Shown in pieces: positions 195 to 16,379 of a stretch of 17,672 nucleotides of DNA; position 1 is the first letter of the stretch, and each line of letters starts with the position of its first letter. The notes under the pieces were generated by a model. It had not been told where the DNA came from, did not search any database, and was given only the letters and a program-made list of their open reading frames with translations. The position numbers were made by a program, and so were the translations under genes. The DNA is from a virus (Duplodnaviria; Heunggongvirae; Uroviricota; Caudoviricetes): IMG/VR virus record IMGVR_UViG_2529292998_000008, one strand, 5' to 3'.

Positions 195-662
195 ATGCTT
201 AAGACAAACAGTCTGCGAGAGTCCATGCTTCATGGGTGTCGGTGGTGCCAGGCTAATCCCGAGAAATTCACCATTTTCGTGGAGAGCGGCAACATTGAAA
301 CGACCGGAGAAGCGCCCTCGTTTGTTTACCGCTATCAGATGGTGATGTTTGTCATGGATTACGCCGGAGAGCTGGACGACCTCACGCTGCCGCTGCTGGC
401 GTGGTTATCCGAAAATCAGCCACAGTTGTTGCTCAATCCGGAGCGTAATCAGGACATCAAATTTTCTGCCGTTATCAATGACGATGACAGCGCCGATCTC
501 CTGTTTACGCTCCCCCTGCGGGAACGCGTTCGCATCACGCGCAACAGTCAGGGCACACCGCAGGCAGAACACCTGCCGGAGCCAAAACCCCGTCTGCCCT
601 CTTCCGAAGGCGACTGGTCGCATGTATTCCAGGATGTGACGTGGGGTGAAAGCGATGGATAA
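195..662 (+). CDS. R: Tail completion protein, P2 gpR-like
   Basis: 155 aa ORF; AGGAG-like RBS upstream of ATG 195; position immediately upstream of the S/V/W/J block; size matches P2 gpR. Confidence 0.7.
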   Translation: MLKTNSLRESMLHGCRWCQANPEKFTIFVESGNIETTGEAPSFVYRYQMVMFVMDYAGELDDLTLPLLAWLSENQPQLLLNPERNQDIKFSAVINDDDSADLLFTLPLRERVRITRNSQGTPQAEHLPEPKPRLPSSEGDWSHVFQDVTWGESDG

Positions 663-1290
663 GGCATTCACCAGCGTGGATGAAACCTTTGAGGCTATCC
701 GCGACAGCCTGAATCAGCAGGCCATCAATAACATCGCCAGAAAGCTGGCACAGGATTTACGTCGCGCCCAGCAGGCACGTATCCGATCACAAAAAGCGCC
801 GGACGGGACCGAATGGACACCACGCAGACGCCGCGTAACCCGGATACAGGAGCGCATTCGCTTTATCTGGAATAACGAAGCACGCACGCTGAAAAACTGG
901 CATCACGACACGGGGAAATACGGGCGAACCATTACCGGGTGGGATGAGGATAAAAACAATATCCGCACGTTTTACCGGGATGACATCGACCGTTTTCTGG
1001 AAATACGCACCCGGCGCATCAACCAGGACAGCACAAAGCGCGTCCCCATGTTTGTAAAACTGCGCACCGCCCGCTACCTGAAAGCCCGTGCAGATGCTTC
1101 CGGTGTGACGGTGGGTTACAGCGGCGTGGCCGCACGTATTGCCCGCGTTCATCAGTTCGGTGAGCGCGATCAGGTTGCGCCGGGCATTTTCACCGATTAC
1201 CCGGTACGTGAGCTGCTGGGTATCAGCCAGGCAGATGAGCGCCTGATTTATAACACGGTGCTGGGCCGGATTGCGGAGGCTGTACGGTGA
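646..1290 (+). CDS. S: Virion morphogenesis / tail completion protein, P2 gpS-like
   Basis: 214 aa ORF overlapping R by 17 nt (translational coupling); synteny R-S-V. Confidence 0.7.
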   Translation: MKAMDKAFTSVDETFEAIRDSLNQQAINNIARKLAQDLRRAQQARIRSQKAPDGTEWTPRRRRVTRIQERIRFIWNNEARTLKNWHHDTGKYGRTITGWDEDKNNIRTFYRDDIDRFLEIRTRRINQDSTKRVPMFVKLRTARYLKARADASGVTVGYSGVAARIARVHQFGERDQVAPGIFTDYPVRELLGISQADERLIYNTVLGRIAEAVR

Positions 1291-1868
1291 GCGCAGAACT
1301 CATGCGACTGCTGAGCAATATCATCCGCACCGGGATCATCTCTGAAGTTGATGAGAAGTCCTGGCGCGTGCGCGTTCGCAGCGGCGAACTGGAAACAGGC
1401 TGGCTGCGCTGGAACACCACGCGCGCGGGAGCCTTCAATGTGTGGCTGCCGCCATCACCAGGCGAACAGGTGGTAATTGCCTGCATTGGCGGCAACCCGG
1501 AAACCGCCATGATAATTGGCAGCCTGTGGAGTGATGCCAGTCCGGCCCCCGGCAAAAGCCTGAAAGAAATCGTGATCAGCGCGCCGGACGGCGCGGTGTT
1601 CCGCTACGACGCAGACGCTGGCGCACTGAGCGCCAGCGGCATGAAAACGGCCACTTTACAGGCATCCGTCAGCGTGAAACTGGACACGCCCGTCGTGGAA
1701 TGCACAAACCTTCTGAGAACGGCGACGCTTGACGTCACAAAAGGAGGAAAGATGAGCGGCAATATCACGCACAGCGGCGGCAACTTCACCTCAAACGGCA
1801 TCACAGTGCATACGCATAAACACGGTGGCGTGAAAGGCGGCAGCGATTCGACAGGAGGCCCGCAGTGA
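1287..1868 (+). CDS. V: Baseplate assembly protein V (spike), P2 gpV-like
   Basis: 193 aa; ATGA-type overlap with S stop; synteny and size typical of gpV. Confidence 0.75.
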   Translation: MSAELMRLLSNIIRTGIISEVDEKSWRVRVRSGELETGWLRWNTTRAGAFNVWLPPSPGEQVVIACIGGNPETAMIIGSLWSDASPAPGKSLKEIVISAPDGAVFRYDADAGALSASGMKTATLQASVSVKLDTPVVECTNLLRTATLDVTKGGKMSGNITHSGGNFTSNGITVHTHKHGGVKGGSDSTGGPQ

Positions 1869-2215
1869 CAACCCGCTACACAGGAATGAATCCGGACGGG
1901 ACGGGAAACCTGAACGATATGGAGCACCTGAAACAGTCAGTCAGGGATATCCTGATCACCCCGCTGGCAAGCCGGGTTATGCGACGGGAATATGGCAGCC
2001 TTGTGCCTGATTTGATTGACGAACCCATGAATAACACAACTCGTCTGCAATGCATGAGTGCTGCCGTGATTGCGCTGACACGATGGGAACCCCGCATTGC
2101 CCTGGACGCCATCGACGTTGTCTGGAAGGCAGGAGGCCGCGCCGGGGTGACGCTGTCGGGCACTGTCATGCAGACCATGCAGAATGTTGAATTAACCATC
2201 ACGCTGAGAGAGTAA
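1865..2215 (+). CDS. W: Baseplate wedge protein W (gp25-like)
   Basis: 116 aa, overlaps V stop; size and position match P2 gpW. Confidence 0.8.
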   Translation: MTTRYTGMNPDGTGNLNDMEHLKQSVRDILITPLASRVMRREYGSLVPDLIDEPMNNTTRLQCMSAAVIALTRWEPRIALDAIDVVWKAGGRAGVTLSGTVMQTMQNVELTITLRE

Positions 2216-2218
2216 ATC

Positions 2219-3115
2219 ATGCCTGCTGTTGACCTTTCCCAGTTACCGGAACCCGCCATCATCGCGAAGCCTGATTTTGAGGCAATTCTGGCTGACACAA
2301 AGGCCATGATGATTGCGTCCTATCCTGCCGAACAGCGTGAAGCCGTCTCCGCCGCGCTGGAGCTGGAATCGGAACCCCTGAACGTTATCGCTCAAACCAT
2401 GTCTTTTCGTGAAATGCTGTTACGCCAGCGGGTTAACGAGGGCGCACGCGCCTGCATGTTAAGCCACGGTTCAGGGACAAACCTGGACAACCTCGCGGGC
2501 AATATGAACACAAAGCGCCTGGTTATCACTCCGGCAACGGATACCACCGACGCGGTGATGGAGAGCGACACCTCGCTGAGATTGCGGGCGCAACGGGCGT
2601 ATGACGGCCTGAGTGTTGCTGGCCCGTCAGGTGCATACGAGTATTTTGCACGCAGCGCCAGCGGTCTGGTGCGTGATGCGCGGGCCATCAGCCCGTCTCC
2701 GGCCTGTGTGACGGTTTCCATCCTGTCCACTGAAGGCGACGGCACAGCAACGGAGGCGTTGCTTAATACCGTTCGCGCCGTTCTGAATGCAGAGGATACC
2801 CGCCCGGTGGCCGACCGCCTGACCGTACAGAGCGCCAGAATCGTGACATGGCGGCTGAATGCAAAACTGTACTTTTACCCCGGCCCGGAATCCGAACCTA
2901 TTCTGGCCGCGGCTGAATCGTCGTTCAGGAAGTGGCTGGCTGAGCAGGGGCTTATCGGTCAGGACGTGGCGTTGTCCGCCATTGCTGCCGCACTGCATGT
3001 GCACGGTGTGCAACGCGTGGAGATAATCGAACCCACACAGAATATGGCCATCAGCGACATACAGGCGGCGCGCTGTGAGTCATTCACCATCAGCGAAGGT
3101 GGACGCAATGAGTAA
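2219..3115 (+). CDS. J: Baseplate protein J
   Basis: 298 aa (P2 gpJ about 300 aa); follows W by 3 nt. Confidence 0.8.
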   Translation: MPAVDLSQLPEPAIIAKPDFEAILADTKAMMIASYPAEQREAVSAALELESEPLNVIAQTMSFREMLLRQRVNEGARACMLSHGSGTNLDNLAGNMNTKRLVITPATDTTDAVMESDTSLRLRAQRAYDGLSVAGPSGAYEYFARSASGLVRDARAISPSPACVTVSILSTEGDGTATEALLNTVRAVLNAEDTRPVADRLTVQSARIVTWRLNAKLYFYPGPESEPILAAAESSFRKWLAEQGLIGQDVALSAIAAALHVHGVQRVEIIEPTQNMAISDIQAARCESFTISEGGRNE

Positions 3116-3716
3116 TTCGTTGTTACCACCATCAGCCAGCAATTTCATGCGTTGTGCCGAAGCCGTCGGAACACGCATTACAGACATTCCGGTAGACCTC
3201 AACACGCTGTGGTCGCCGGACACCTGCCCGGTGCATCTGCTGCCTTATCTCGCCTGGGCGTTTTCCGTTGACCGCTGGGATCGCAACTGGCCGGAAGAGA
3301 CAAAGCGACAGGTGATTCGTGATGCATGGCTGATACACCGACACAAAGGGACCATCAGCGCACTGCGAAGAGCCGTGGAGCCTCTCGGCTACCTGATTGA
3401 AGTAAAGGAGTGGTGGCAACTCAACGAGGAGCCGGGAACATTTCGCATTGTTGTCGGAGTACTTGATCAGGGCATCACCGATGAAATGCATCAGGAACTT
3501 GAGCGCCTTATTGCGGATGCAAAACCAGTAAGTCGCCATCTGACGGGGCTGGCGATCAGCCTGAGTGTGAACGGAAAGATTTTCGTTGGTACGGGATGCT
3601 ATCACGGCGATGCCCTGACGGTTTATCCCTACACCCCGGAGTCCATTATTGTCGAAGGGGACTATTTCCCTGCCCCGGCCATTCATTTAATTGATAATCT
3701 GAGAGTAAACGCATGA
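3108..3716 (+). CDS. I: Baseplate / tail-fiber-attachment protein I
   Basis: ATG at 3108 with AAGGTGGA RBS, overlapping J stop; the ORF track's 3075 start is a GTG extension; stop overlaps H start (ATGA). Confidence 0.75.
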   Translation: MSNSLLPPSASNFMRCAEAVGTRITDIPVDLNTLWSPDTCPVHLLPYLAWAFSVDRWDRNWPEETKRQVIRDAWLIHRHKGTISALRRAVEPLGYLIEVKEWWQLNEEPGTFRIVVGVLDQGITDEMHQELERLIADAKPVSRHLTGLAISLSVNGKIFVGTGCYHGDALTVYPYTPESIIVEGDYFPAPAIHLIDNLRVNA

Positions 3717-5383
3717 CAGTGAAATACTACGCTATTCTGACTAATCAGGGCGCGGCACGACTGGCTAACGCGACGATGCTCGGCAGTAAACTGAATCTGA
3801 CGCAAATGGCCGTTGGTGATGCAAATGGTGTGTTACCAACACCAGACCCTGCACAAACAAAACTGATTAACCAGAAACGCATTGCACCGCTGAATCTTCT
3901 GAGTGTTGACCCTAACAATCAGAGCCAGATTATTGCGGAGCAAATCATCCCTGAAAACGAGGGAGGATTCTGGATCCGTGAGATTGGTCTTTATGATGAT
4001 GAAGGTGCACTCATTGCGGTGGCAAACTGCCCGGAAACGTACAAACCGCAGTTGCAGGAAGGCAGTGGACGCACCCAGACTATCCGCATGATTCTGGTTG
4101 TCACGAACACCGAAGCCATCACGCTGAAAATCGACCCGTCTGTGGTTCTGGCAACCCGCAAATATGTGGATGATAAAATATCAGAGCACGAACAATCACG
4201 ACGTCACCCGGACGCCTCGCTGACCGTAAAAGGTTTTACTCAGTTAAGCAGTGCAATTAACAGTGAATCAGAAACACTGGCCGCAACACCGAAAGCGGTT
4301 AAGGCTGCATATGACCTGGCTAACGGGAAATATACCGCCCAGAACGCCACCACTACACAAAAAGGGATTGTTCAGCTCAGTAGCGCCACGAACAGCACGT
4401 CTGAAACGCTGGCAGCGACACCAAAAGCTGTTAAGGCGGTAATGGATGAAACGAACAAGAAAGCACCATTAAACAGCCCGGCACTGACCGGAACGCCAAC
4501 AACACCAACAGCGCCACAGGGGGCTAATAGTACCCAGATCGCAAGCACGGCTTTCGTTATGGCCGCGATTGCCGCACTTGTAGATTCGTCACCTGATGCA
4601 CTGAACACGCTGAACGAACTGGCTGCGGCGCTGGGCAATGACCCGAATTTTGCGACCACCATGACTAACGCGCTTGCGGGTAAGCAACCGAAGAATGCCA
4701 CCCTGACGGCGCTGGCGAAGCTTGCTACATCAGCAGATAAACTCCCATATTTTACAGGGGCAGATCGTGCCGCGTTAACCGCGTTGACAAGTGTTGGACG
4801 TGCCATTCTTGGTAAAACCAGCACTCAGGGAGTTCTTGATTACCTTGGTTTGGGGGAAGGCTCTGCACTGCCCGTTGGTGTACCTGTTCCGTGGCCCTCA
4901 GCCACTCCACCAACGGGCTGGCTGAAATGCAACGGCGCAGCATTTTCTCCTGAAGATTACCCCAAACTGGCACAGGCTTACCCCGCGAACAAATTACCGG
5001 ATCTACGGGGTGAATTTATCCGTGGCTGGGATGATGGACGTGGCTTGGATGCTGGGCGTGCCTTGCTAAGTCTTCAGGATGACTCTTTTGAAGCGCACAG
5101 GCATGAGTCCTTTTTTTATGCGGGTATTTCACGTAATGAGATCCCATTAAAAAATCTTCCAAGTTCAGACGAGATGCTGACTTTAAGTTCCACAACTAAT
5201 GCCTTGTCCCCGGACGATATTGATGCCACCAACTCGTTAATTGGTAATGACGATTACAACTGTCTTATCGAAGGGAATAAAAATAACAAACGAACAGCGA
5301 CAGGACTGAGTACCAGTATTGTCGGCACAGCAGAAACACGCCCCCGCAACGTTGCATTCAATTACATCGTAAGAGCCGCATGA
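3713..5383 (+). CDS. H: Tail fiber protein H: constant N-terminal part fused in the current orientation to C-terminal cassette C1
   Basis: 556 aa; N-terminus typical of P2 H / Mu S tail fibers; contains two SETLAATPKAVK-type fiber repeats; the C-terminal ~180 aa (from ~4847) is homologous to four downstream cassettes. Confidence 0.9.
   Translation: MTVKYYAILTNQGAARLANATMLGSKLNLTQMAVGDANGVLPTPDPAQTKLINQKRIAPLNLLSVDPNNQSQIIAEQIIPENEGGFWIREIGLYDDEGALIAVANCPETYKPQLQEGSGRTQTIRMILVVTNTEAITLKIDPSVVLATRKYVDDKISEHEQSRRHPDASLTVKGFTQLSSAINSESETLAATPKAVKAAYDLANGKYTAQNATTTQKGIVQLSSATNSTSETLAATPKAVKAVMDETNKKAPLNSPALTGTPTTPTAPQGANSTQIASTAFVMAAIAALVDSSPDALNTLNELAAALGNDPNFATTMTNALAGKQPKNATLTALAKLATSADKLPYFTGADRAALTALTSVGRAILGKTSTQGVLDYLGLGEGSALPVGVPVPWPSATPPTGWLKCNGAAFSPEDYPKLAQAYPANKLPDLRGEFIRGWDDGRGLDAGRALLSLQDDSFEAHRHESFFYAGISRNEIPLKNLPSSDEMLTLSSTTNALSPDDIDATNSLIGNDDYNCLIEGNKNNKRTATGLSTSIVGTAETRPRNVAFNYIVRAA
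4228..4450 (+). repeat. Two copies of a ~29-aa phage tail fibre repeat inside H (…SSA.NS.SETLAATPKAVKA…)
   Basis: Near-identical peptide and nucleotide blocks at ~4228-4314 and ~4361-4450. Confidence 0.7.
4833..4858 (+). repeat. Candidate crossover site s1 (hix/gix-like, H constant/variable junction)
   Basis: On the opposite strand reads CCTTCCCCCAAACC-AA-GGTAATC, resembling the AAACC-NN-GGTTT core of Hin-family sites; start of the ~210-bp block shared by all cassettes. Confidence 0.55.
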
Positions 5384-5402
5384 AAACGTTGGTTTGGGGA
5401 AA
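5377..5402 (+). repeat. Candidate crossover site s2
   Basis: GCATGAAAACG-TT-GGTTTGGGG at the C1 stop / C2 junction; direct orientation relative to s1. Confidence 0.55.
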
Positions 5403-5822
5403 GGCTCTGCGCTGCCCGTTGGTGTGCCCGTTCCGTGGTCCTCAGCAACACCACCAACGGGCTGGCTGAAATGTAACGGCGCAGCATTTTCTTCTGAAAT
5501 GTATCCCGGACTGGCAAAGGCTTACCCCACCAATAAATTACCGGATTTACGGGGTGAATTTATCCGTGGCTGGGATGATGGGCGCGGGATTGATGCGGGA
5601 CGTACCCTGCTTTCAGGGCAGGATGGTACAAGTTTTTCTCATTACGGAGGTAATTTCGACATTGGGTCTGGTCATTCAATCAATAACTATGACCAAATTG
5701 TTTCTAACCAACCAAGCTTTTCCCGTTTTTCATTTGCAGGACCTTCACGAGGTGATGGGGTCAATTATGTAACCATTCGTCCTCGTAATATTGCGTTTAA
5801 TTACATCGTAAGGGCAGCATGA
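5394..5822 (+). CDS. Silent tail fiber C-terminal cassette C2 (no ATG; expressible only after fusion to H)
   Basis: 142-codon frame beginning GKGSALPVGVPVPW…, ending RPRNIAFNYIVRAA*; conserved ~70-aa N-part, unique middle. Confidence 0.65.
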   Translation: MGKGSALPVGVPVPWSSATPPTGWLKCNGAAFSSEMYPGLAKAYPTNKLPDLRGEFIRGWDDGRGIDAGRTLLSGQDGTSFSHYGGNFDIGSGHSINNYDQIVSNQPSFSRFSFAGPSRGDGVNYVTIRPRNIAFNYIVRAA

Positions 5823-5841
5823 AAACGTTGGTTTGGGGGAA
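5816..5841 (+). repeat. Candidate crossover site s3
   Basis: Same GCATGAAAACG-TT-GGTTTGGGGG junction sequence between C2 and C3. Confidence 0.55.
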
Positions 5842-6309
5842 GGCTCTGCACTGCCCGTTGGTGTGCCTGTTCCATGGCCCTTAGCAACACCACCAACGGG
5901 CTGGCTGAAATGTAACGGTGCAGCATTTTCTTCTGAAATGTACCCCAAACTGGCAAAAGCCTACCCCACTAATAAATTACCGGATTTACGCGGAGAATTT
6001 ATCCGTGGCTGGGATGATGGGCGAGGAATTGATGCGGCACGCGCTTTATTGAGCATTCAAAACGGGATGTTGGAAAAACACCGCCATATTGTTGTAGCTA
6101 ACGATGGATATGACACAAAAGATGAATGGGAGTTGGCTACGATTTTCAAAAAAACATATACACAAGGCAGGGGGCTTGATGCCACAAATACAGGAGGGAG
6201 TTTGATTCCATCACCAACGCTTCATTCACGAGGAAGTATTGGTAACACAGGTGGTAGTGAAACCCGCCCCCGCAATATTGCATTTAACTATATCGTGAGG
6301 GCGGCTTAG
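5833..6309 (+). CDS. Silent tail fiber C-terminal cassette C3
   Basis: 158-codon frame GEGSALPVGVPVPWPLATPPTGWLKCNGAAF… ending …NIAFNYIVRAA*; no ATG start. Confidence 0.65.
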   Translation: MGEGSALPVGVPVPWPLATPPTGWLKCNGAAFSSEMYPKLAKAYPTNKLPDLRGEFIRGWDDGRGIDAARALLSIQNGMLEKHRHIVVANDGYDTKDEWELATIFKKTYTQGRGLDATNTGGSLIPSPTLHSRGSIGNTGGSETRPRNIAFNYIVRAA

Positions 6310-6315
6310 TTATAT

Positions 6316-6927
6316 TCAACTGGCTGCTGCCAGTGGTATTTCCGGCAAGTTGATATCTGGTACCATGTTTATATCCATTGCGTTCAGCGCGTCTATATAA
6401 TCCAGCACGGCATTAAGCCGGGTGGTTTCTGCCTGCGTCAACTTCCGCCCGGCCTGCAACTTCAACTGAATCAGACTTATGGAAGCCATTGCCGCATCAG
6501 CCAGTGACTGGCGCTTGGTTTCTGCCGCTTCTACTGCGGCACGATGTTGTGCCTCAGTATCTGTCACCCATTTTTCACCATCCCATTTATCGTATGGTGT
6601 TAACGGGGCGATAGTGGTTGTAGTTTTCGGGTAGTCACCCAGCGCCGTGATTTCTTCGGTGTTTCCCGTGTCAGTGCTATAGACGGTTTCACCACGATGG
6701 TCTGGCGCATACTCCCATGAACTTAAATTCTCCGAACGGCGGATAGCATAGCCCGCTTTATGTGCGCCCGGGGCATCTAAACAGGAATTTGCCGGAATAC
6801 CGACACCCACAGCAAGATATTCAGTTGATTCGGAAATATATTCCCGTGTCTCACCATCATAGTTATAAACGACGATGTTTCCTGCCTGTACGGCAATAAG
6901 GTCATCATTTAATATCGCGTTATTCAT
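6316..6927 (-). CDS. Tail fiber assembly chaperone (Tfa; Mu U / P2 G / TfaE family)
   Basis: 203 aa; C-terminal half recognisably similar to E. coli TfaE (…DHRGxTVY…KWNG/DGxxWVxDTEA…); start ATG overlaps the stop of cassette B (TAATG). Confidence 0.8.
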   Translation of the reverse strand: MNNAILNDDLIAVQAGNIVVYNYDGETREYISESTEYLAVGVGIPANSCLDAPGAHKAGYAIRRSENLSSWEYAPDHRGETVYSTDTGNTEEITALGDYPKTTTTIAPLTPYDKWDGEKWVTDTEAQHRAAVEAAETKRQSLADAAMASISLIQLKLQAGRKLTQAETTRLNAVLDYIDALNAMDINMVPDINLPEIPLAAAS

Positions 6928-7385
6928 TATGCGGTTCTCACAATATAATTGAAGGCAATATTGCGTGGGCGGTTTTCATTCCCATCTGAGGATTCCGTTC
7001 TGTATTGACTGGTAAATCTACCGTTAATTGCACCTTGCCGGACGGCGTTATCTGTCGACAACAGACTATCCCCTCTTTTGTCATTTGGCACCAGTACCGT
7101 GTTATCCCACGCATCCCATGACCGAATATTATGATAATGACTTCCTGTTAACCACCCCTGCATGCTTAAGATGCCCCTTCCGGCATCCACCCCGCGCCCA
7201 TCATCCCAGCCACGGATAAACTCACCGCGTAAATCAGGTAATTTTAACGTTGGGTAAACCTTTGCCAGATTTGGGTACATTTCAGAAGAAAATGCTGCAC
7301 CGTTACATTTCAGCCAGCCCGTTGGTGGTGTGGCTGAGGGCCATGGAACAGGCACACCAACGGGCAGTGCAGAGCCTTCCCCCAA
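6927..7385 (-). CDS. Tail fiber C-terminal cassette B (inverted orientation, translationally coupled to tfa)
   Basis: 152-codon frame GEGSALPVGVPVPWPSATPPTGWLKCNGAAF… ending …NIAFNYIVRTA*. Confidence 0.65.
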   Translation of the reverse strand: MGEGSALPVGVPVPWPSATPPTGWLKCNGAAFSSEMYPNLAKVYPTLKLPDLRGEFIRGWDDGRGVDAGRGILSMQGWLTGSHYHNIRSWDAWDNTVLVPNDKRGDSLLSTDNAVRQGAINGRFTSQYRTESSDGNENRPRNIAFNYIVRTA

Positions 7386-7402
7386 ACCAACGTTTTCATG
7401 CT
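7377..7402 (-). repeat. Candidate crossover site s4 (inverted relative to s1-s3)
   Basis: Plus strand reads TTCCCCCAAACC-AA-CGTTTTCATGC, the reverse complement of the s2/s3 junction. Confidence 0.55.
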
Positions 7403-7959
7403 GCCCTTACGATGTAATTAAACGCAATGTTGCGTGGGCGGTTTTCGTTTGCAGTTGGAACAATTTTTGAAGCATCAAGGCCAATCACTTTTGGGTAAAC
7501 AGCGCCGTCTGTCCTTTCTGTCACCATACTTCTGACTAAGGAGAAATAACTATTGTTTGTTGAGGAATTTAAAGGCACCACTGCCCCCTTAAACGAGCCT
7601 ACTGATTCCCATATTGAATAATTTTCAGTGTTTACAGTCTTGAACTCACCATAGATATTACGTATGGCATCACCTTGAGCGGATAATATTGTTCTCCCCG
7701 CATCCGCACTACGTCCATCATCCCAGCCACGAATAAATTCACCCCGTAAATCCGGTAATTTATTGGTGGGGTAAGCCTTTGCCAGTCCGGGATACATTTC
7801 AGAAGAAAATGCTGCGCCGTTACATTTCAGCCAGCCCGTTGGTGGTGTTGCTGAGGGCCACGGAACGGGCACACCAACAGGCAGCGCAGAACCTTCCCCC
7901 AAACCAACGTTTTCGTTTTTATCCCTACCTATACCAACTATGTATTTTTCACGAAACAA
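7396..7959 (-). CDS. Tail fiber C-terminal cassette A (inverted orientation, nearest the invertase)
   Basis: Frame …VGLGEGSALPVGVPVPWPSATPP… ending …NIAFNYIVRAA*; the ORF track's N-terminal extension to a TTG at 7959 is probably not translated. Confidence 0.6.
   Translation of the reverse strand: MFREKYIVGIGRDKNENVGLGEGSALPVGVPVPWPSATPPTGWLKCNGAAFSSEMYPGLAKAYPTNKLPDLRGEFIRGWDDGRSADAGRTILSAQGDAIRNIYGEFKTVNTENYSIWESVGSFKGAVVPLNSSTNNSYFSLVRSMVTERTDGAVYPKVIGLDASKIVPTANENRPRNIAFNYIVRAA
7894..7919 (-). repeat. Candidate crossover site s5 (inverted; sits just upstream of the invertase promoter/start)
   Basis: Plus strand CCTTCCCCCAAACC-AA-CGTTTTCGTT at 7894-7919. Confidence 0.55.
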
Positions 7960-7973
7960 AGAGGATGTTTTTT

Positions 7974-8573
7974 ATGCAAATTGGCTATGTTCGTGTGTCA
8001 ACAAATGACCAGAACACGGATTTACAACGCAATGCACTGAACTGCGCAGGATGTGAACTGATTTTTGAAGATAAAATCAGCGGAACGAAATCAGCCAGAC
8101 CGGGATTGAAAAAACTGCTCAGAACGCTATCAGAAGGAGATACGCTGGTTGTCTGGAAGCTGGACAGACTGGGCAGAAGTATGAAACACCTGATCACGCT
8201 TATTGAGGAATTGCGGGAAAAAGGTGTTAATTTCCGTAGTCTGACGGACAGCATTGACACATCAACACCCATGGGGCGTTTCTTTTTTCACGTCATGGGG
8301 GCTTTAGCCGAAATGGAACGTGAATTAATTGTAGAGCGTACACTGGCCGGGCTGGCAGCAGCACGCGCACAAGGACGCATTGGCGGACGTCGCCCGAAGT
8401 TGACAAAAGAACAACACGAGCAAATAGCGAGGCTGATTAAAAACGGTCATGACAGGAAACAACTGGCGATCATTTACGACATCGGCATATCGACGATTTA
8501 TCGTTATCACCCTGTAGGCGATATACAGGCTGAAGAAACAACCAGGCAGACTCAGGAAAATGAAAACCGCTAA
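7974..8573 (+). CDS. Site-specific DNA invertase, serine recombinase of the Hin/Gin/Cin/Pin family
   Basis: N-terminus MQIGYVRVSTNDQNTDLQRNAL with catalytic Ser in the VRVST motif; C-terminal HTH (GISTIYRY); GAGGA RBS 8 nt before ATG 7974; the ORF-track start at 7779 is an upstream in-frame extension. Confidence 0.9.
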   Translation: MQIGYVRVSTNDQNTDLQRNALNCAGCELIFEDKISGTKSARPGLKKLLRTLSEGDTLVVWKLDRLGRSMKHLITLIEELREKGVNFRSLTDSIDTSTPMGRFFFHVMGALAEMERELIVERTLAGLAAARAQGRIGGRRPKLTKEQHEQIARLIKNGHDRKQLAIIYDIGISTIYRYHPVGDIQAEETTRQTQENENR

Positions 8574-8592
8574 TCTGACCATTAGCGGTTTT
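8562..8592. terminator. Bidirectional intrinsic terminator between convergent invertase and U
   Basis: Perfect inverted repeat AAAACCGCTAAT-CTGACC-ATTAGCGGTTTT, with A-run on one side and T-run on the other. Confidence 0.6.
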
Positions 8593-8599
8593 GCGTTAA

Positions 8600-9094
8600 T
8601 CAAAACAGCCCTTTAACGGAGCTGGCCGCGCTGTTAAGGGATGATGTGACCTTATCTTTGAAGCCGGACAGCATATCACTGAACGATGAGGATTGCAGGC
8701 GCTCCCGCAAATCCTCATCACAGCGTTCAAGAGTCAGTGAAAACTCTATCTTTTTCGCCTTACCGTAGCGATCAAACTCGGAGCGGGTCGTATTCGTTCC
8801 GGTCAGGACATACATGCCGTAAATCTGCCCGACACCATCAATCAGAGGCCAGGGGCGTCCTGTATATGCCTGCGTGGTCAGCAACGAAAGCGACACTTCG
8901 CCACCTGTAATTTCAGGATAAAGCACACCAGAAAGAACGATGCGATCATCGCCTGCCCCGATATACTGCCAGCTTGCTGAACGGTTAACGCGTTCATTTT
9001 TCACATGCCGCCAGCTTTTGTTTTGCTGTAACTGCTGATGCGGCAACGTACGCAGCTCAAAAACAAACATGCCGTAGATCATCATCATGGCCAT
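8600..9094 (-). CDS. U: Tail protein U, P2 gpU-like
   Basis: 164 aa; recognisable similarity to P2 gpU (…GMFVFxxxTLPHQ…GVLYPExTGG…WPLxDGxGxIYGMYV…). Confidence 0.85.
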   Translation of the reverse strand: MAMMMIYGMFVFELRTLPHQQLQQNKSWRHVKNERVNRSASWQYIGAGDDRIVLSGVLYPEITGGEVSLSLLTTQAYTGRPWPLIDGVGQIYGMYVLTGTNTTRSEFDRYGKAKKIEFSLTLERCDEDLRERLQSSSFSDMLSGFKDKVTSSLNSAASSVKGLF

Positions 9095-9100
9095 GACTCC

Positions 9101-11917
9101 TCAATCTTTATCGTAAAAACTGCCACGCCCGGCACGGGCGCGCCGTTCCATTTCTGCCCTGACCATTTCACCGACCAGTTTCGCCAGTTCGCGGGGATTC
9201 TGCGTAACAACGTTATGCAGATGAACATGAATTTCACCACCAAATCCGGAGGCAACAGGCTCCCGGTTACGGGAAGTTACAGGAACTGATGCCACTGGAG
9301 ATCGTATGGCCTCCGCCACCGGGCGGGAGCTGGCCGCAACAACAGGGACCAGCGCCGGAGGCAGCGGAGCCGGGACCACGGGGGTGATATTCATTGCGGG
9401 GGCAGGCTTACTGACCTGTGCAATCTTCCGCTCCTGCCACTCCCCACGAACAGCAAGTGCGCGGGGCAGGTTCTTAAAGACAATATCGCCGGGGCCAATA
9501 CGTTTTTTTGTCTCATCAACCAGCTTACCTGTGTTATCAGCAATTTTGCTGAGTCTGCGTAGCGTGCCGGTATTGCTGTCTGTGAGCGGTTTGTTGTCTT
9601 TGGGTTTATCGCCTCCGGTGCCATTGCCATTTTCCGCAGACTTCGGCGGATTGATTTTCGCAATGTCTCCCTGAAACAGAGCAACCTTGTCCTGAAGAAT
9701 GGCCGCACGCTGTGCGTCTTCGATTTTCTTTCTCGCCCTTTCCGCTTCATCCGGAAGCACACCGAGTTTTTCAAGTATCCACGCCAGCGTATCCAGCAAC
9801 ATTTTTGCAGGCGTCAGAACAAGCTGTAGCGCGCCACCAAGAGCGTTACCGAATATCTCGCCAGCACTGGTACATTTATCCAGCGTTTCCTTGCTGGACT
9901 CCATCGGTGACAGCAGCGATTTAAACCAGTTAAACACCTGGCTGATCCCGCTTCCGATTGCGTCAAAAACAGGACCAAACCGTTCAAAGGTTTCACGCAA
10001 CGGGTTCAGCCTTTCCATAATCCCGCTGAACACCCCGGCAAAAAATGCCCTGATGGGATCCCAGTATTTCCAGATAAGAACGGCAGCTCCGGCAAGCGCA
10101 GCCACGATAAGACCAACCGGACTGAACAGCGCCCCGATAGCGCCTCCCAGCAAAGAAACGGAACCCGTCACCATTCCCCACAGCGCAGGCAACACCCTGA
10201 CGACATTCATTGACCGGGTAAGAATGTCAAAACCAAGACGCAGGGTGGCCAGCTTCCCGTAAAGCACCCCAATAACCAGTGACAACGAGCCAATCGTTGC
10301 AGTCATTGCCAGCAACGCACCGCCTGCTATCAGTAGCTGGCGCGTCAGTACCGGATGGGCCTGCGCCAGCGAGGTGATTTTTTCAAGCACCCGCGTGAGC
10401 CACTGCGTGACAGAACGCAGCGGACCGTCAACCAGATCACTGATGCGAATACGAAGACCTTCCCATGCGCTGTCGAGATTTTTCAGGTCCCCATCAAGAT
10501 TATCGGCCATTACTTTTGCAACGCGATCGGCCTCTCCCCTTGCCCCCTGCAATTCTCTGGTCAGTTTTTGCAGCTCTCCTGAACCAGCCGCCGCAACAAG
10601 CGTCTGCAAACCAACGAACGCCTCTTCTCCGGCGATGTCCTTGAAGAAGGAGACCTGGTCCACCTGTCCGTATTTTTGTGTCGCCTTATAGAGATCAAGC
10701 AGCACATCCTCCATCGGGCGCATTTTGCCTCTGGCGTCAGCAACTGACACCCCCAGCTCTTTCAGTGCATCAGCCGCAGCTTTTGGCGGTGATGCAAGGC
10801 GGGACAGACTTGCGCGCATGGCCGTGCCAGCATCGCTTCCGCGAAGACCATTATTGGCAAGCATCCCGGCCATAGCCGCCGCTTCTTCAAGACTGATACC
10901 AAGTTTTGCGGCAACCGGACCGGTATACTTCATGGTTTCGCCCAGCGCGCGTAAATCAGTATTGGTCCGGGTGAATGCCGCTGTCAGCGTATCGCCAACC
11001 CGGTCCATTTGATCGGCTGTCAGGTTGAACTGTGTGAGGATATTGGAGCCTATATCCGCCGTCTCGCCGAGTTCGACGCCACCTGCCAGCGCCATATTAA
11101 GAACACCGGGCAATGCGGCCTGAATGGCCTGCGGAGTAAAACCAGCCATTGCCAGAAAGCTCTGCCCACTGGCGGCATCACTCGCAGTAAACTGTGTTTC
11201 AGAGCCAAGTTTTAACGCCTGCTCACGCAGCGCCTTAAACTGCGGGCTGTTTTTGTCGATTCGCGTCAGTGCCTGAACGCGGGACATCTCTTTGCCGAAC
11301 CCGATCGCAGGCTGCAAAAAACGCCCGGCAGCATAGCCGCCCGCCGCTGCCGCACCAATTGCCAGCGCACCACCTGTTTTCAGTTTTCCCGCGGTTTCCT
11401 GCGCGCGCGAATACCGCTCACGCGCCCGCGTTACACGCGCAAGCGCCTGCCGTTCGCGTTCAAGCTGGTTGTTGTACTGTTCGGTGCGTCTGATGGCCTG
11501 CTGGATGGTGTTATCGCTGCCTGTCAGGGAAATGCCGTGGCGTTTCAGCTCTCCGCCAAGCTCCCGCATTTTCTGAATTTCCCGTGTGCGCGATTCATTC
11601 AGGCGTTCAAGCCGGGTGCTTAACTGCTGCATCAGCTTTTGTTGTTTTTCGCTGAGCACTGTACCCGTGCGTTGTAACTGATTAAGGGCGTTAAGCTGGC
11701 GTCGTGCTTTCACGATACCCGCATCCGCTTTACTGACAGCGTCGCGGGCGCGCTCAAATGATCGCGCCTGACGCTCGAGATTTTTGATCGCCCCCTGCGT
11801 TCGCTGGATGGAGTCACCAAACTGCCCCATCAGGCGGCGGGCGTTTTCGGCAGGCCGGGTCAGCCTGTCAACGGCGCTGAAAGCGACCCGGATATCAAGA
11901 GTCTTCATTGTCTGCAT
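9101..11917 (-). CDS. T: Tail tape measure protein T
   Basis: ~940 aa, coiled-coil-rich N-part and hydrophobic central segment; between E' and U. Start ambiguous: first ATG at 11917, in-frame GTG at 11944. Confidence 0.85.
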   Translation of the reverse strand: MQTMKTLDIRVAFSAVDRLTRPAENARRLMGQFGDSIQRTQGAIKNLERQARSFERARDAVSKADAGIVKARRQLNALNQLQRTGTVLSEKQQKLMQQLSTRLERLNESRTREIQKMRELGGELKRHGISLTGSDNTIQQAIRRTEQYNNQLERERQALARVTRARERYSRAQETAGKLKTGGALAIGAAAAGGYAAGRFLQPAIGFGKEMSRVQALTRIDKNSPQFKALREQALKLGSETQFTASDAASGQSFLAMAGFTPQAIQAALPGVLNMALAGGVELGETADIGSNILTQFNLTADQMDRVGDTLTAAFTRTNTDLRALGETMKYTGPVAAKLGISLEEAAAMAGMLANNGLRGSDAGTAMRASLSRLASPPKAAADALKELGVSVADARGKMRPMEDVLLDLYKATQKYGQVDQVSFFKDIAGEEAFVGLQTLVAAAGSGELQKLTRELQGARGEADRVAKVMADNLDGDLKNLDSAWEGLRIRISDLVDGPLRSVTQWLTRVLEKITSLAQAHPVLTRQLLIAGGALLAMTATIGSLSLVIGVLYGKLATLRLGFDILTRSMNVVRVLPALWGMVTGSVSLLGGAIGALFSPVGLIVAALAGAAVLIWKYWDPIRAFFAGVFSGIMERLNPLRETFERFGPVFDAIGSGISQVFNWFKSLLSPMESSKETLDKCTSAGEIFGNALGGALQLVLTPAKMLLDTLAWILEKLGVLPDEAERARKKIEDAQRAAILQDKVALFQGDIAKINPPKSAENGNGTGGDKPKDNKPLTDSNTGTLRRLSKIADNTGKLVDETKKRIGPGDIVFKNLPRALAVRGEWQERKIAQVSKPAPAMNITPVVPAPLPPALVPVVAASSRPVAEAIRSPVASVPVTSRNREPVASGFGGEIHVHLHNVVTQNPRELAKLVGEMVRAEMERRARAGRGSFYDKD

Positions 11918-12424
11918 TCCCGCTGCGAAGTGCCGCCCGCTCACGCCAGCTAACCACTTCGCCGGGCGTCATCATGAAGATTTCGGCGGGCGACCAGTTA
12001 AAAATGGCGGCAATATCCGCCACAAAGTCTTCTATGTGCTCAAAGCACACAACCGTGATCAGGCTTCCGTCGCCTGTTCGCTCTTCCCGCCAGAGTCCGC
12101 ACCGCTCAAAAAATTTACGGCAACCACACATAACTGAATAAAATCACGGGATGCCATTTTTTTGATCGTCACTTCATCCAGTCGTGGCGAGGTCACGCGT
12201 GACAGCAGCGTAAACATGGATTCCGCTTTCAGATTCAGCACATCAGACAGCGACAAATCTCGCAGAGATCCAGCCTGCTCAATAGCCCCGGTGATCTCCA
12301 CATACGTGATTTTTTCGCCGCCTCGCTCAATTGGTTGGGTAAGTTTTACGCCACGCTCACTGGTTTCTTTCACAGTGTCAGTAACTACCGTGTTTTCGGT
12401 ATCGATGTTTTTCGTCTCTTTCAT
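11895..12424 (-). CDS. E': Tail assembly chaperone E+E' (product of a programmed -1 frameshift)
   Basis: The -1 frame downstream of a T-TTT-TTG slippery heptamer (plus-strand 12107-12113) stays open to 11895 and overlaps the T start, as in P2 E/E' and lambda G/GT. Confidence 0.7.
12059..12424 (-). CDS. E: Tail assembly chaperone E
   Basis: 121 aa; AAAGGAG RBS before the ATG at 12424; lies between FII and T. Confidence 0.8.
   Translation of the reverse strand: MKETKNIDTENTVVTDTVKETSERGVKLTQPIERGGEKITYVEITGAIEQAGSLRDLSLSDVLNLKAESMFTLLSRVTSPRLDEVTIKKMASRDFIQLCVVAVNFLSGADSGGKSEQATEA
12107..12113 (-). promoter_or_regulatory. Slippery heptamer for the E to E' -1 ribosomal frameshift
   Basis: Minus-strand sequence AAT-TTT-TTG-AGC in the E frame. 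Confidence 0.6.
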
Positions 12425-12478
12425 CAGGAAACTCCTTTCAGTCAGAGGCGACGCACTGCGCCGCCTGCATATTACTTA

Positions 12479-12991
12479 TCAGCCAAGCCCGAGCGCGGAA
12501 CGGATGCGATCGGGCACAATGTCCTTGCCGTCCTTCCGGTAGATGTGGTTCAACAGGTCGATTTCCCACAGCGGGCGATCGTTAACGCTCAGCTTGTAGT
12601 AGGTGTTTTTGACAGCGTAAGTGTGTGATGTGGCTTCGCCCTGTTTGGCCTCCCCCATATCAATTTCCGTCACACGCCCGCGCATCTCGATTTCATACAG
12701 ATCGCTTTCTGCATCGGTGTAGTATTCACCCGCAAAACGCAGCAGCGTGCCGTCAATCGTGCCGCCATATTTAAGGAACAGCGCACGAACAGCTCCCCCC
12801 ATGACAAAGCTCGCATCAAGCGCGGAGTCGTCCAGACCGAGATCAATACTTACCGCCCCCATCATGCCACCACCCCGGTAGCTGTCGGTTTTGCGCGTCA
12901 GCTTAGGCAGAGTGACGGACGTCACCTTACCCACTTCGTTTTCACCATCCACAAACAGCGTAAAAAAGCGAAGATGTTTTGGTACAGCCAT
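12479..12991 (-). CDS. FII: Tail tube protein FII
   Basis: 170 aa; recognisable similarity to P2 FII (…VTLPKLTRK…YRGxGM…DLGLDD…RFAG…MRG…EIDxGExKQGE…). Confidence 0.9.
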   Translation of the reverse strand: MAVPKHLRFFTLFVDGENEVGKVTSVTLPKLTRKTDSYRGGGMMGAVSIDLGLDDSALDASFVMGGAVRALFLKYGGTIDGTLLRFAGEYYTDAESDLYEIEMRGRVTEIDMGEAKQGEATSHTYAVKNTYYKLSVNDRPLWEIDLLNHIYRKDGKDIVPDRIRSALGLG

Positions 12992-14175
12992 CAGGCACCT
13001 CCCAGCACCGCAAATGCGGGACCAAAGAATTCATCAGTAAACGTCTGGTAAAGCTCCATGTCTTCCAGTGGCGGAACGGGCGTATATTTGTAGCGAATAC
13101 GCACACGTCCCTGACGTAAATCCGTGGTGCCGTTATCCACCACGTCATACCAGCACTCCGCGCCAATCAGTTTCCCGGCAGTAACCAGCGAATCCAGTTT
13201 TGCCCTGATGGCACTGATAACATCCTTCACGTTCGCAGGCGTCAGTGGACTGTCGATGGTTTCAAACTGCGCTTCCGCAATTGAATCAGCCAGCACCTGT
13301 GCGGTTCGGGTATACACCTCAAAGATGTAGGCGTTCGTTTCCGGTGTGCGGTTGCCCCAGAAGCGGAACCCGTTACGACGAATAATGGTCGTGATTTCTT
13401 TGTTGTTGAGGCTGTTGGCATCACTGTCTTCGGCCTGTAACGACCAGAACACATGCCTCGACATCCCCAGCACATTTTTAACCGGAACGTTGGACAGCGA
13501 TTTGTGCCAGCCCTGCTCATGGTCAATGTACGCACGAAGGCCGCACGCATAAGCAGGCGCGGGGAACGTTTCGTTTTTGCCACTTTTCGGGTTGTAGGCG
13601 ATGAAGTCAGGCCATAAGAGCATCACCTCACGTTCGTTGAATTTCTGGCGGTAGGTAATCGCCTCAGCCATCGTGTTACAACCATGACATGCGGCATACA
13701 CAAACGCGCGCAGTTTACCCGCAATCACGCACAGGGATTTTGTCACCGCCTCCGTGTCCAGCTCCGGCGCGGCCAGAATACGCGGACGGTATCCGATGCT
13801 TTCATCCTGCTCTGCAACAAGCAGCGCATACATCCCCGTATAGCTGCCGTCAGATTCAGAACCACCGATAACCAGTTGATCCTGCGTCTTTCCGTTTTCT
13901 TCTTTGTGTTCAGCCACGCGAACGACGATCACCTTTGTGCTCACCTGGTCTGCGATGGCCTTAAGCGCACGATAAAGCGTCCCCGTTGTCCCGCATTTTC
14001 CCAGCACGTCATTGACGCGGGTCAGCAGTGTGGGCTTGTTCAGCGGGAACAGCTTCGCGTCCGCATCATCCGCCGTTGCCACGATACCGATAACGCTGGA
14101 ATCAACATCGTTAATCGCTGTTACCAGGTCGGTACTTTCCGTAACACGGGCACCATGAAAACGAGTTTCACTCAT
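12991..14175 (-). CDS. FI: Contractile tail sheath protein FI
   Basis: 394 aa; strong similarity to P2 FI (…DADAxxFPLNKP…WPDF…QGWHKxLSNV…GFRFWGNRT…YTPVPPLE…); AAGGGG RBS. Confidence 0.9.
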   Translation of the reverse strand: MSETRFHGARVTESTDLVTAINDVDSSVIGIVATADDADAKLFPLNKPTLLTRVNDVLGKCGTTGTLYRALKAIADQVSTKVIVVRVAEHKEENGKTQDQLVIGGSESDGSYTGMYALLVAEQDESIGYRPRILAAPELDTEAVTKSLCVIAGKLRAFVYAACHGCNTMAEAITYRQKFNEREVMLLWPDFIAYNPKSGKNETFPAPAYACGLRAYIDHEQGWHKSLSNVPVKNVLGMSRHVFWSLQAEDSDANSLNNKEITTIIRRNGFRFWGNRTPETNAYIFEVYTRTAQVLADSIAEAQFETIDSPLTPANVKDVISAIRAKLDSLVTAGKLIGAECWYDVVDNGTTDLRQGRVRIRYKYTPVPPLEDMELYQTFTDEFFGPAFAVLGGA

Positions 14176-14332
14176 AGCTTCAGCCCCTTGTATCCGTTAA
14201 ATGATTCGGCAACAATCATCACCCACCACGCGCGTAATCTCACCCCTGCGCCGTTCTCCCGCCACGGCGACAACAAAAAGCAGTAACCCCCTCCGCACGC
14301 ACATGCGACCATGCCGCACAGGGAGGGAGCAG
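14176..14332. promoter_or_regulatory. Divergent intergenic region between the FI operon (minus) and D-ogr (plus); presumed late promoters
   Basis: 157-bp non-coding gap between divergent start codons; no confident -35/-10 or Ogr-type TGT-N12-ACA motif found by eye. Confidence 0.35.
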
Positions 14333-15442
14333 ATGACCGACACCACCATGCAATTGCTCAGTCAGGGCACAGACCCCGTGAAAATGCCGGATTTTGATAT
14401 TCTCGCGGAGGGTAAAACGCTGTCAGGCGTGGCAGAGTGCCTGATGAGCCTGTCACTGACCGACAACCGGGGATTTGAGGCGGACCAGCTCACCATCACG
14501 CTGGATGATGCGGATGGTCAGTTGCAGCTACCGCCACGGGGCGCGCGCCTGACGGTTCTCATTGGCTGGAAAGGAGAACCGCTGACAGAAAAAGGCACTT
14601 ACATTGTTGATGAAATCGCTCACGAAGGACCGCCGGACAGGCTGACTGTTTCAGCCAGAAGCGCAGATTTTCGGGATGAATTTAACGTTAAACGTGAGGT
14701 GTCCTGGCATGATGTGACCGTTGAGCGTGTGGTATCCGCCATCGCTCATCGGTATGGTCTGAAACCGCAAATCAGCGAAATGCTGATGGATATCGAAATC
14801 GACCACGCCGACCAGACCGAAGAAAGCGACATGTCCTTCCTTACGCGCATGGCGGAAATGCTGGGCGCAATCACCACGGTAAAAAGCGGTAATCTGTTAT
14901 TCATCATGCCCGGCGGTGGCGTGAACGCACAGGGCCAGCCGTTGCCATCGTTTGCCATCACACGCAGCAGCGGCGATCGCCATCAGTTCCGCATTGCTGA
15001 CCGCGAAGCGTATACGGGGGTACGCGCTTACTGGCTTGATCTTAATTACGGGAAAAAGAAAAAAGTCAGCGTGAAACGCCGTAAACCGCCAAAACCCAAA
15101 AAGGAGAAAAGCAGCAGCCGTGAAGGTGATTATATGGAAGGCGCGGAAGGCAATGTGTTTGTGTTACGCAAGACTTATCAGAACGAGCAGACAGCAAGAC
15201 GCGCAGCGGCGGCAAAGTGGCAGCAACTACAACGCGGAGCCGCATCATTCTCCATCACGCTGGCGCGTGGACGTGCAGAACTCTACCCCGAAATGCATGG
15301 CACGGTAACAGGATTTAAAAGCGAGATTGATAATCAGGACTGGATCATTGCAAAAGCCGAGCACACCATTGATAACAGCGGTTTTACCACGCAGCTTGAG
15401 CTTGAGGCAAAAATCCCGGAATGGATAGCGGAAACAGAGTGA
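14333..15442 (+). CDS. D: Tail protein D
   Basis: 369 aa from the ATG at 14333, preceded by an AGGGAGGG RBS (the ORF track extends to 14201 but lacks an RBS there); position before ogr as in P2. Confidence 0.8.
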   Translation: MTDTTMQLLSQGTDPVKMPDFDILAEGKTLSGVAECLMSLSLTDNRGFEADQLTITLDDADGQLQLPPRGARLTVLIGWKGEPLTEKGTYIVDEIAHEGPPDRLTVSARSADFRDEFNVKREVSWHDVTVERVVSAIAHRYGLKPQISEMLMDIEIDHADQTEESDMSFLTRMAEMLGAITTVKSGNLLFIMPGGGVNAQGQPLPSFAITRSSGDRHQFRIADREAYTGVRAYWLDLNYGKKKKVSVKRRKPPKPKKEKSSSREGDYMEGAEGNVFVLRKTYQNEQTARRAAAAKWQQLQRGAASFSITLARGRAELYPEMHGTVTGFKSEIDNQDWIIAKAEHTIDNSGFTTQLELEAKIPEWIAETE

Positions 15443-15743: not shown

Positions 15744-15763
15744 CAGGCAGAATTGCCGGAGTA

Positions 15764-15790
15764 ACAAAAACGCGATAGATTACGCGCGGG
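15764..15790 (-). terminator. Weak hairpin plus T-run on the minus strand; candidate 3' end of a Sok-like antisense RNA
   Basis: Minus strand reads CCCGCGCG-TAATCTAT-CGCG-TTTTT, directly upstream of the mok-like start. Confidence 0.3.
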
Positions 15791-15803
15791 TGCCTTTCGG
15801 CTG

Positions 15804-16016
15804 ATGGTCGGAGGGAATACCCGAAGGCCAGATGTGGAAAGGCCCCGGAAAACATCTCTGTTTAACCGAGGCCCTAACCGCATTACCTTGACAAGTGAAA
15901 GGTTAGCGCCTCTCCGGAAAAGGAGCAAGTGCTATGTCGCAAAAATCGCTTACGGCCATCACGTTCTGCGTGACGGCAATCCTCATCATCTGGATGCTGC
16001 ACGGTTCGCTGTGTGA
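15804..16016 (+). CDS. mok-like overlapping reading frame (modulator of hok translation)
   Basis: 70-codon ORF in a different frame that starts upstream of and overlaps the hok-like gene, as in hok/mok/sok loci. Confidence 0.4.
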   Translation: MVGGNTRRPDVERPRKTSLFNRGPNRITLTSERLAPLRKRSKCYVAKIAYGHHVLRDGNPHHLDAARFAV

Positions 16017-16074
16017 AATACGGATGAGTTTCTGGGGAGCGGAGTTTGCGGCGTTCTTACAGTGTAAGCAGTAA
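15934..16074 (+). CDS. hok: Hok/Gef-family type I toxin (small membrane peptide)
   Basis: 46 aa MSQKSLTAITFCVTAILIIWMLHGSLCEIRMSFWGAEFAAFLQCKQ: hydrophobic N-terminal helix then SLCEIR…AAF, matching Hok (…[21 protein letters not shown]…); AGGAG RBS 8 nt upstream. Confidence 0.75.
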   Translation: MSQKSLTAITFCVTAILIIWMLHGSLCEIRMSFWGAEFAAFLQCKQ

Positions 16075-16167
16075 GGAAACCGCGACGGGGAAGGCAACTT
16101 CCCCGTCAATCGGTTGCCAGGGTAAAGGTCGAAAAGACACCCTATTTCCAGTTGACGTGAACAACAA

Positions 16168-16200
16168 GCCCGCAGCGTAAAAACTGCGGGTTTTCTTTTT
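16168..16200 (+). terminator. Intrinsic terminator (probable 3' end of the hok-like mRNA)
   Basis: GCCCGCAG-CGTAAAAA-CTGCGGGT followed by TTTTCTTTTT. Confidence 0.65.
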
Positions 16201-16232
16201 GGTTCCCTCACTCATGAGGACACCAAAAAACA

Positions 16233-16264
16233 AAGCCCACAGCATAGAAACTGTGGGCTTTTTG
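16233..16264 (+). terminator. Second terminator-like hairpin, a diverged copy of the one at 16168-16200
   Basis: AAGCCCACAG-CATAGAAA-CTGTGGGCTT-TTTG, preceded by an A-run. Confidence 0.55.
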
Positions 16265-16337
16265 CATTCAAAGATGGACGTTATATGGACACTTAAAAAT
16301 AAAATCCATTTATTTTCAAATGATTAAACCTCTACTT

Positions 16338-16359
16338 AAAGCGCCCGCAGGCGCTTTTT
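16338..16359. terminator. GC-rich hairpin with T-run just 3' of serS (likely serS terminator, possibly bidirectional)
   Basis: AAAGCGCC-CGCA-GGCGCTTTTT located about 20 nt below the serS stop codon. Confidence 0.5.
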
Positions 16360-16379
16360 AGATTCAGAAAAATTGGGTA

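Follow-up and report, generated by a model that had tools for sequence, protein, structure and literature searches.

A probable multiple-inversion tail-fibre switch with Din-type crossover sites in a P88-like, P2-family Escherichia coli prophage

The stretch of DNA analysed here (17,672 nucleotides; the window) is part of a P2-family E. coli prophage. The genes R, S, V, W, J and I are encoded on the plus strand (195-3716) and are followed by the tail-fibre gene H, while the tail operon U-T-E-FII-FI is encoded on the minus strand (8600-14175) and is followed by D, ogr and the host gene serS. The tail operon FI-FII-E-T-U runs opposite to its direction in canonical P2, whereas D and ogr are oriented like H. 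The same inverted layout was found in phage P88_4B11 (Xuanwuvirus; L018), which argues for a lineage trait rather than a product of the invertase encoded in the window. No inverted repeats or quasi-sites were found to flank the inverted FI-U operon (8574-14200). The region from H up to the tail operon holds the following features:

3713-4844, plus strand: constant part of H, up to the crossover dinucleotide (Pfam Phage_tail_fib and Phage_fiber_2 repeats)
4847-5383, plus strand: cassette A, now fused to H (Collar domain; H-A, 556 aa)
5391-5822, plus strand: cassette B, silent (Collar domain; H-B open, 521 aa)
5830-6309, plus strand: cassette C, silent, left end of the central segment (Collar domain; H-C, 537 aa)
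6316-6927, minus strand: tfa, tail-fibre assembly (chaperone) gene (Pfam Caudo_TAP, E = 8.9e-31)
6927-7388, minus strand: cassette D, silent, right end of the central segment (Collar domain; H-D, 531 aa)
7396-7905, minus strand: cassette E, silent (Collar domain; H-E, 547 aa)
7974-8573, plus strand: serine DNA invertase, 199 aa, Pin/Min-like (Resolvase and HTH_7)
7992-8063, no strand assigned: candidate recombinational (Fis) enhancer at the 5' end of the invertase gene, placed by gapless alignment to the P1 cin enhancer (nt 19-90)
8563-8592, no strand assigned: hairpin with a 12-bp stem between the convergent invertase and gpU genes

The whole H gene (3713-5383) comprises a Phage_tail_fib N-terminus, fibre repeats and a C-terminal Collar domain. 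The tip cassettes, each headed by a crossover site, span roughly 140-180 codons, and the constant part of H was 98-100% identical among the related loci described below, whatever tip was fused to it. A preliminary description of this DNA had proposed that exchange at the sites would swap tips in frame. We confirmed that H joined to A, B, C, D or E stays open across the ...DYLGLGEG... codons in every case (lengths as listed above).

The crossover sites were located by scanning the window. The 16-mer CCAAACCAACGTTTTC occurs exactly four times, at 5382-5397 and 5821-5836 on the minus strand and at 7382-7397 and 7899-7914 on the plus strand, and a fifth match with three mismatches lies at 4838-4853 on the minus strand, where it reads CCAAACCAAGGTAATC. 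Five matches were thus observed compared to 0.23 expected, and none of 200 shuffles attained five. Written as cassette half, centre and outer half, the five 26-bp sites are:

Site 1, 4833-4858, plus strand: ttcccccaaacc AA ggtaatcaagaa; TT at 4845-4846
Site 2, 5377-5402, plus strand: tttccccaaacc AA cgttttcatgcg; TT at 5389-5390; TGA stop of cassette A in the outer half
Site 3, 5816-5841, plus strand: ttcccccaaacc AA cgttttcatgct; TT at 5828-5829; TGA stop of cassette B in the outer half
Site 4, 7377-7402, minus strand: ttcccccaaacc AA cgttttcatgct; AA at 7389-7390; stop of cassette E in the outer half; the site named in the preliminary description
Site 5, 7894-7919, minus strand: ttcccccaaacc AA cgttttcgtttt; AA at 7906-7907; adjoins the invertase gene

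Three sites are oriented one way and two the other, and the positions previously given for the five central dinucleotides were all correct. The accompanying claim that all five junctions carry CCAAACC-AA-CGTTTTC is exact for four sites. It fails for site 1, which has the three mismatches and a different outer half; this half lies within the constant part of H and is divergent (ttcttgattacc, reading GGTAATC). The inner, cassette-side half TTGGTTTGGGGGAA was common to all five sites, barring one G>A change in site 2 (tttccccaaacc). This change was absent from the other 74 sites examined, turns LGLGEG into LGLGKG in cassette B, and could weaken site 2. When sites were searched with the centre left unconstrained, the central AA was found in 75 of 75 sites from 16 loci, and it is present in all five sites of the window; since AA is asymmetric, each site has a polarity.

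The extent of homology around the sites differed. At site 1, the cassette homology starts at the dinucleotide itself, as had been proposed for all junctions, and the sequence outside it shows no relation right up to position -1. Site 5 comes close to this pattern, with homology starting 7 nt before the dinucleotide (gaaaacg is shared), while at sites 2 to 4 the homology runs on both sides because the 3' ends of the cassettes (...RPRNIAFNYIVRAA-TGA) are conserved as well. Similarly, the stop codon of the upstream cassette was said to sit inside the half-site, which is the case for A, B and E (all TGA); C ends outside it with a TAG (6307-6309), and so does D, whose TAA overlaps the start of tfa.

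Reference sites for comparison were taken from annotated records (P1 cixL/cixR together with the cin enhancer, the boundaries of the Mu G-segment, and the P-segment of K-12 e14) and were set with the half belonging to the invertible segment at the left:

e14 pix, first: ttctcccaaacc AA cgtttatgaaaa
e14 pix, second: ttctcccaaacc AA ggttttcgagag
P1 cix: ttctcttaaacc AA ggtttaggattg
Mu gix: ttcctgtaaacc GA ggttttggataa

Similar to pix, cix and gix, the window sites have a 2-bp centre flanked by 12-bp half-sites (...AAACC) whose symmetry is imperfect, and judged by this alignment they can be classed as crossover sites of the Hin/Gin/Cin/Pin/Min ("Din") family of serine invertases. The inner half-site is identical to that of e14 at 11 of 12 positions with AA at the centre of both, whereas Mu gix has a central GA. 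The suggestion of a Hin/Gin-like core was therefore right as to the family, and less so in singling out hixL: the nearest sites were e14 pix and the Min-type sites of P1-like plasmids, the comparison set being pix, cix and gix. For the prophages of strain EC958, 26-bp crossover sites with the inner half GGTTTGGGGGAA have been tabulated, and the 3' site of Phi2 (GAGAGATAAACG TT GGTTTGGGGGAA) matches the inner half of the window exactly (Forde et al. 2014, PMC4134206). The EC958 systems likewise concern fibre genes of E. coli prophages whose tip has a Collar domain, but they are two-site systems with mirror-image pairs of a tip and a minor tail-fibre gene (PMC4134206).

The invertase gene starts 55 bp from site 5. 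Its product carries the domains PF00239 (Resolvase; E = 2.1e-51) and PF02796 (HTH_7; E = 1.4e-12), and is 83% identical to PinE and about 72-74% identical to Gin and Cin. The catalytic-serine motif VRVSTNDQ is present, and GYVRVSTNDQ is conserved with PinE, Gin and Cin. Compared to the invertase of the E. coli E2348/69 prophage, 197 of 199 residues are identical, and identity to the invertase of a P1-like plasmid is 94%. A shufflon of the R64 Rci type, in which a tyrosine recombinase acts on short asymmetric repeats (the 19-bp sfx), resembles the locus in general look only, through its many short cassettes and repeats in both orientations. The only recombinase of the locus is of the serine type (Resolvase plus HTH_7) and the sites are dyads of the Din type. 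The domains by themselves refute this reading, to which we give practically no weight.

The 5' end of the invertase gene is a candidate for the recombinational enhancer of a Din-type system. Over the aligned 72 nt (7992-8063), DNA identity to pin, gin and cin was 88%, 74% and 79%, compared to 78%, 64% and 60% over the next 72 nt. A conserved G-N13-C 15-mer lies at nt 71-85 of the gene, and some 96 bp separate the candidate proximal core from the centre of site 5. In Hin, the enhancer is positioned approximately 100 bp from a site (PMC3798978). The candidate region, put forward from sequence conservation within a coding region, would agree with an internal Fis enhancer at a similar distance from site 5, although such a fit is not proof.

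Given three plus-oriented and two minus-oriented sites, six inversions are possible, and an exhaustive search yielded 48 isomers with five expressed fibres. Overlapping invertible segments, permuted cassette orders in related loci and in-frame alternative 3' ends, by which a multiple-inversion system is recognised, were all found. We consider it very likely that the locus is a tail-fibre switch working by multiple inversion ("shufflon-like"), of the Pin/Min type within the Din family, and carried by a P88-like prophage that belongs to the P2 family. In the proposed mechanism, dimers of the invertase would bind two oppositely oriented sites, and the bound sites would assemble with the Fis-bound enhancer in the 5' coding region of the invertase gene into an invertasome. 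Both sites would then be cut with a 2-bp stagger at the central AA/TT, with phosphoserine links to the DNA, and half of the complex would rotate by 180 degrees before religation. One such event would invert all DNA between the two sites, and successive events would permute the cassettes, so that the constant part of H could be continued in frame, at the ...LGLGEG... codons, by any of the five tips. Only sites in inverted orientation would be expected to act as productive partners, since deletions between directly repeated sites are normally disfavoured by the Fis/enhancer complex. These steps follow the Hin system, for which an invertasome, staggered 2-bp cuts through phosphoserine, a 180-degree rotation and religation have been described (PMC3798978). 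By analogy, we infer cleavage at the central 2 bp, dependence on Fis and the enhancer, and activity in the strain of the window.

Natural isomers of an orthologous locus were available from the P2-like prophage of E. coli E2348/69, whose site sequences are the same as those of the window and whose invertase is nearly identical (see above). The E2348/69 locus has three sites, three tips and four isomers, compared to five sites, five tips and 48 isomers in the window. The cassette order is B C tfa' D' in one assembly of this strain (NC_011601) and D tfa C' B' in another (CP059840). All that distinguishes them is an exact inversion of the 1998 bp that separate the central dinucleotide of the first site from that of the last, the flanks compared (5.1 kb on the left and 4 kb on the right) being identical. 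The outer flanks are unlike right up to position -1, and the first difference between the cassette heads comes after 37 nt, which places the exchange within the TT and the following 35 nt (37 bp). This natural junction has its ends at the predicted dinucleotides and gives a bound of 37 bp for the exchange, not the dinucleotide alone. We tried to narrow this bound through the H-E junction, where the first polymorphism lies 15 nt after the TT. This was given up, as the E allele of strain GPEC1031, the sole direct fusion of H to an E-type tip that was found, is 95% identical and does not carry the polymorphism. A hypothetical H-D-tfa junction built from the window matched the E2348/69 record over its full length with 98.0% nucleotide identity. 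Inversion of the E2348/69 locus has been demonstrated in clonal cultures by paired-end sequencing and PCR (NC_011601, 1891695-1893703 and 1892127-1893703); four variants were present side by side, and H had three alternative C-termini (Goldberg et al. 2014, PMC4272514). The locus was called a shufflon, and its repeats were described as 215-bp inverted repeats with 92% homology, without a definition of 26-bp sites (PMC4272514).

An alternative explanation is that RecA-type homologous recombination acts between the inverted cassette heads (about 215 bp and about 92% identical), in which case the 26-bp motif would merely be the conserved start of a repeat. The heads are indeed long inverted repeats (215 bp, 92% homology; PMC4272514), and they are mosaic between types, some being uncoupled from the bodies that follow. 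Over the first 100 nt or so of the cassettes, similarity was 0.92 between types and 0.94 within types, and heads were found on "wrong" bodies: cassette B of L001 carries the head of cassette E of the window with four differences, which suggests conversion between cassette heads, and a variant half-site of the C type is found on D in L016 and L017. The mosaic heads indicate that gene conversion or homologous exchange inside the 215-bp block also acts over evolutionary time, which does not contradict site-specific inversion. The preliminary description had held that junctions mapping elsewhere in the homology block would speak against site-specific exchange; some evolutionary events, such as those behind the mosaic heads, would show junctions of this kind. 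Linkage between heads and bodies was also considered as a test of site-specific exchange and was set aside, as the heads are mosaic and the test is not clean. Against a RecA-driven switch, the homology at site 1 ends exactly at the dinucleotide within a Din-type dyad like those of pix, cix and gix, the central AA is invariant in all 75 sites, an intact Pin-like invertase is always adjacent, and the E2348/69 exchange took place within the first 37 bp of the block. In addition, the minority orientation of the large E2348/69 inversion makes up about 10% of cultures, and the small inversion is on average about 49% in the forward orientation (PMC4272514). We therefore regard RecA as a very improbable driver of the switch and site-specific inversion as the better account of the locus. 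Inversion of diverged 200-bp repeats by RecA is expected to be far less frequent than what is seen in E2348/69.

The module was found in approximately 2000 genomes by megablast against complete E. coli genomes. We retrieved 14 related chromosomal loci and typed their cassettes; one locus (L004; NZ_AP027445) could not be typed because its cassettes are frameshifted. Its sites at 2065, 2501, 3040 and 5064 lack one G of a G-run and many of its cassettes are annotated as frameshifted; these anomalies are probably homopolymer sequencing errors and not biology. All typed loci follow the same grammar: plus-strand cassettes, a central unit reading either C tfa' D' or D tfa C', minus-strand cassettes, and the invertase, with the cassettes permuted. 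For example, one set of six cassettes is ordered B E A C D' F' in L003, whereas in L016 it is ordered B D C' A' F' E'. An intact Pin-like invertase adjoins the sites in every related locus. A chimeric H-D-tfa query was covered to at least 80% at a single place in 49 records, which represent 47 genomes. Natural H-D-tfa fusions exist among them, as do arrangements with another cassette between H and D. An apparent orientation bias, with the first seven loci including the window all reading C tfa' D', was rejected as an artefact of ranking by colinearity with the query; the H-D-tfa matches show otherwise.

Cassette number ranged from two to six among the chromosomal relatives examined, and content varied as well: E is missing from L001, C and D are the sole cassettes of L005, and two copies of A are present in L002. 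L001 (NZ_CM129868) is 99-100% identical to the window apart from the missing E (positions 6690 and 8690, compared to 5389 and 7389-7907 in the window), and its deletion junction falls inside a 23-bp identity block centred on a site. In L002 (NZ_AP031375), cassette A is present at 2646 on the plus strand and at 5773 on the minus strand, one copy on each side of the central unit. This points to a duplication, since inversion alone cannot make it. Cassettes are thus also lost or duplicated, if rarely, through events at the sites or close to them. Such losses and duplications (L001, L005, L002) would be compatible with a switch that has Din-type sites but is frozen in the strain of the window, through a silent invertase or decay of the prophage, its arrangement being a fossil; the G>A change unique to site 2 could be read in the same way. 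The invertase ORF is, however, intact and has its catalytic motif, and it departs at two of 199 residues from the experimentally active enzyme of E2348/69. Four sites are moreover identical in their 16-bp core and all five tips are open. We consider a frozen switch unlikely, if somewhat less so than the RecA reading, and favour a working multiple-inversion system.

The module also occurs on another type of replicon. The P1-like phage-plasmid NZ_CP196102 (220-6597) has a minimum of 12 crossover sites whose sequence type is that of the window, together with one central tfa and the invertase of 94% identity mentioned above; the module is shared by P1-like plasmids and P2-like prophages. The window resembles the Min system of p15B and P1-like replicons in having more than two sites in both orientations, overlapping segments, tips without a chaperone gene of their own and a single central tfa, while it differs in the replicon, which is a P1-like plasmid prophage for Min and a chromosomal P88/P2-like prophage for the window. 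This comparison was made by sequence with the invertase and sites of NZ_CP196102, and by description with p15B. The count of isomers for six sites (5! x 2 = 240) agrees with the number for p15B.

Among the two-site systems, e14 Pin/pix is similar to the window in its invertase (83% identity, as above), in the cgttt... outer half beside the invertase gene, in swapping the C-terminus of a tail fibre and in an adjacent invertase gene that points away from the segment. However, e14 has two sites and two tips with one tfa per tip, compared to five sites and five tips with one tfa in the window. Hin/hix of Salmonella, Gin/gix of Mu and Cin/cix of P1 share with the window the enzyme family and 26-bp sites built on an AAACC-NN-GGTTT-like core, and their enhancers are situated at or close to the 5' end of the invertase gene, as is the candidate enhancer of the window. 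They differ in having two sites each, Gin and Cin also in the lower identity of their invertases (72-74%), and Hin in flipping a promoter and not a fibre tip.

Overall, the feature is one already known, the strain of the window being distinctive only in how many cassettes it has and which ones. Din-family sites and multi-cassette fibre switches have been known since the 1980s-1990s (Mu, P1, e14, p15B). For annotation, it matters that silent tip cassettes are automatically annotated as separate "phage tail protein" genes, and that assemblies of one strain can differ at such a locus. The five tips define the receptor repertoire of the prophage, which is of relevance for host-range prediction and phage engineering.

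The arrangement of tfa deserves separate mention. It is the sole assembly gene for five tips and forms part of the central invertible segment, where it follows D. As the window now stands, tfa is antisense to H; in 24 of the 48 isomers the two genes point the same way, so that inversion may toggle the supply of the chaperone. All five tips end in ...RPRNIAFNYIVRAA, with the pattern ...RPRN(I/V)AFNYIVR(A/T)A. This shared C-terminal motif is a possible common contact for the chaperone and could let one Tfa serve all five tips. We tentatively raise a combined model, which we think rather doubtful as a whole, in which inversion toggles both Tfa supply and tip identity, one Tfa serves all tips, and conversion between heads generates chimeric tips as a second layer of diversification. 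Two P2-type late-promoter dyads (TGT-N12-ACA), sought with regard to tfa expression, were present in the window and neither lies at an expected late promoter; a sigma-70 promoter scan of 6200-8700 gave no more matches than shuffled sequence. One of the two dyads (7941-7958) lies between site 5 and the start codon of the invertase gene and may be an operator or promoter element for it. The hairpin at 8563-8592 is likely a terminator that bounds the module.

Two minor observations concern the far side of the tail operon. The gap at 15744-16379, between ogr and host serS (16380-17672, minus strand), may contain the ogr-side end of the prophage. For gpD, the mechanical ORF spans 413 aa (14201-15442), and an ATG at 14334 follows GGGAGGGAG and is probably the actual start, which would leave a divergent FI-D intergenic region of 158 bp (14176-14333).
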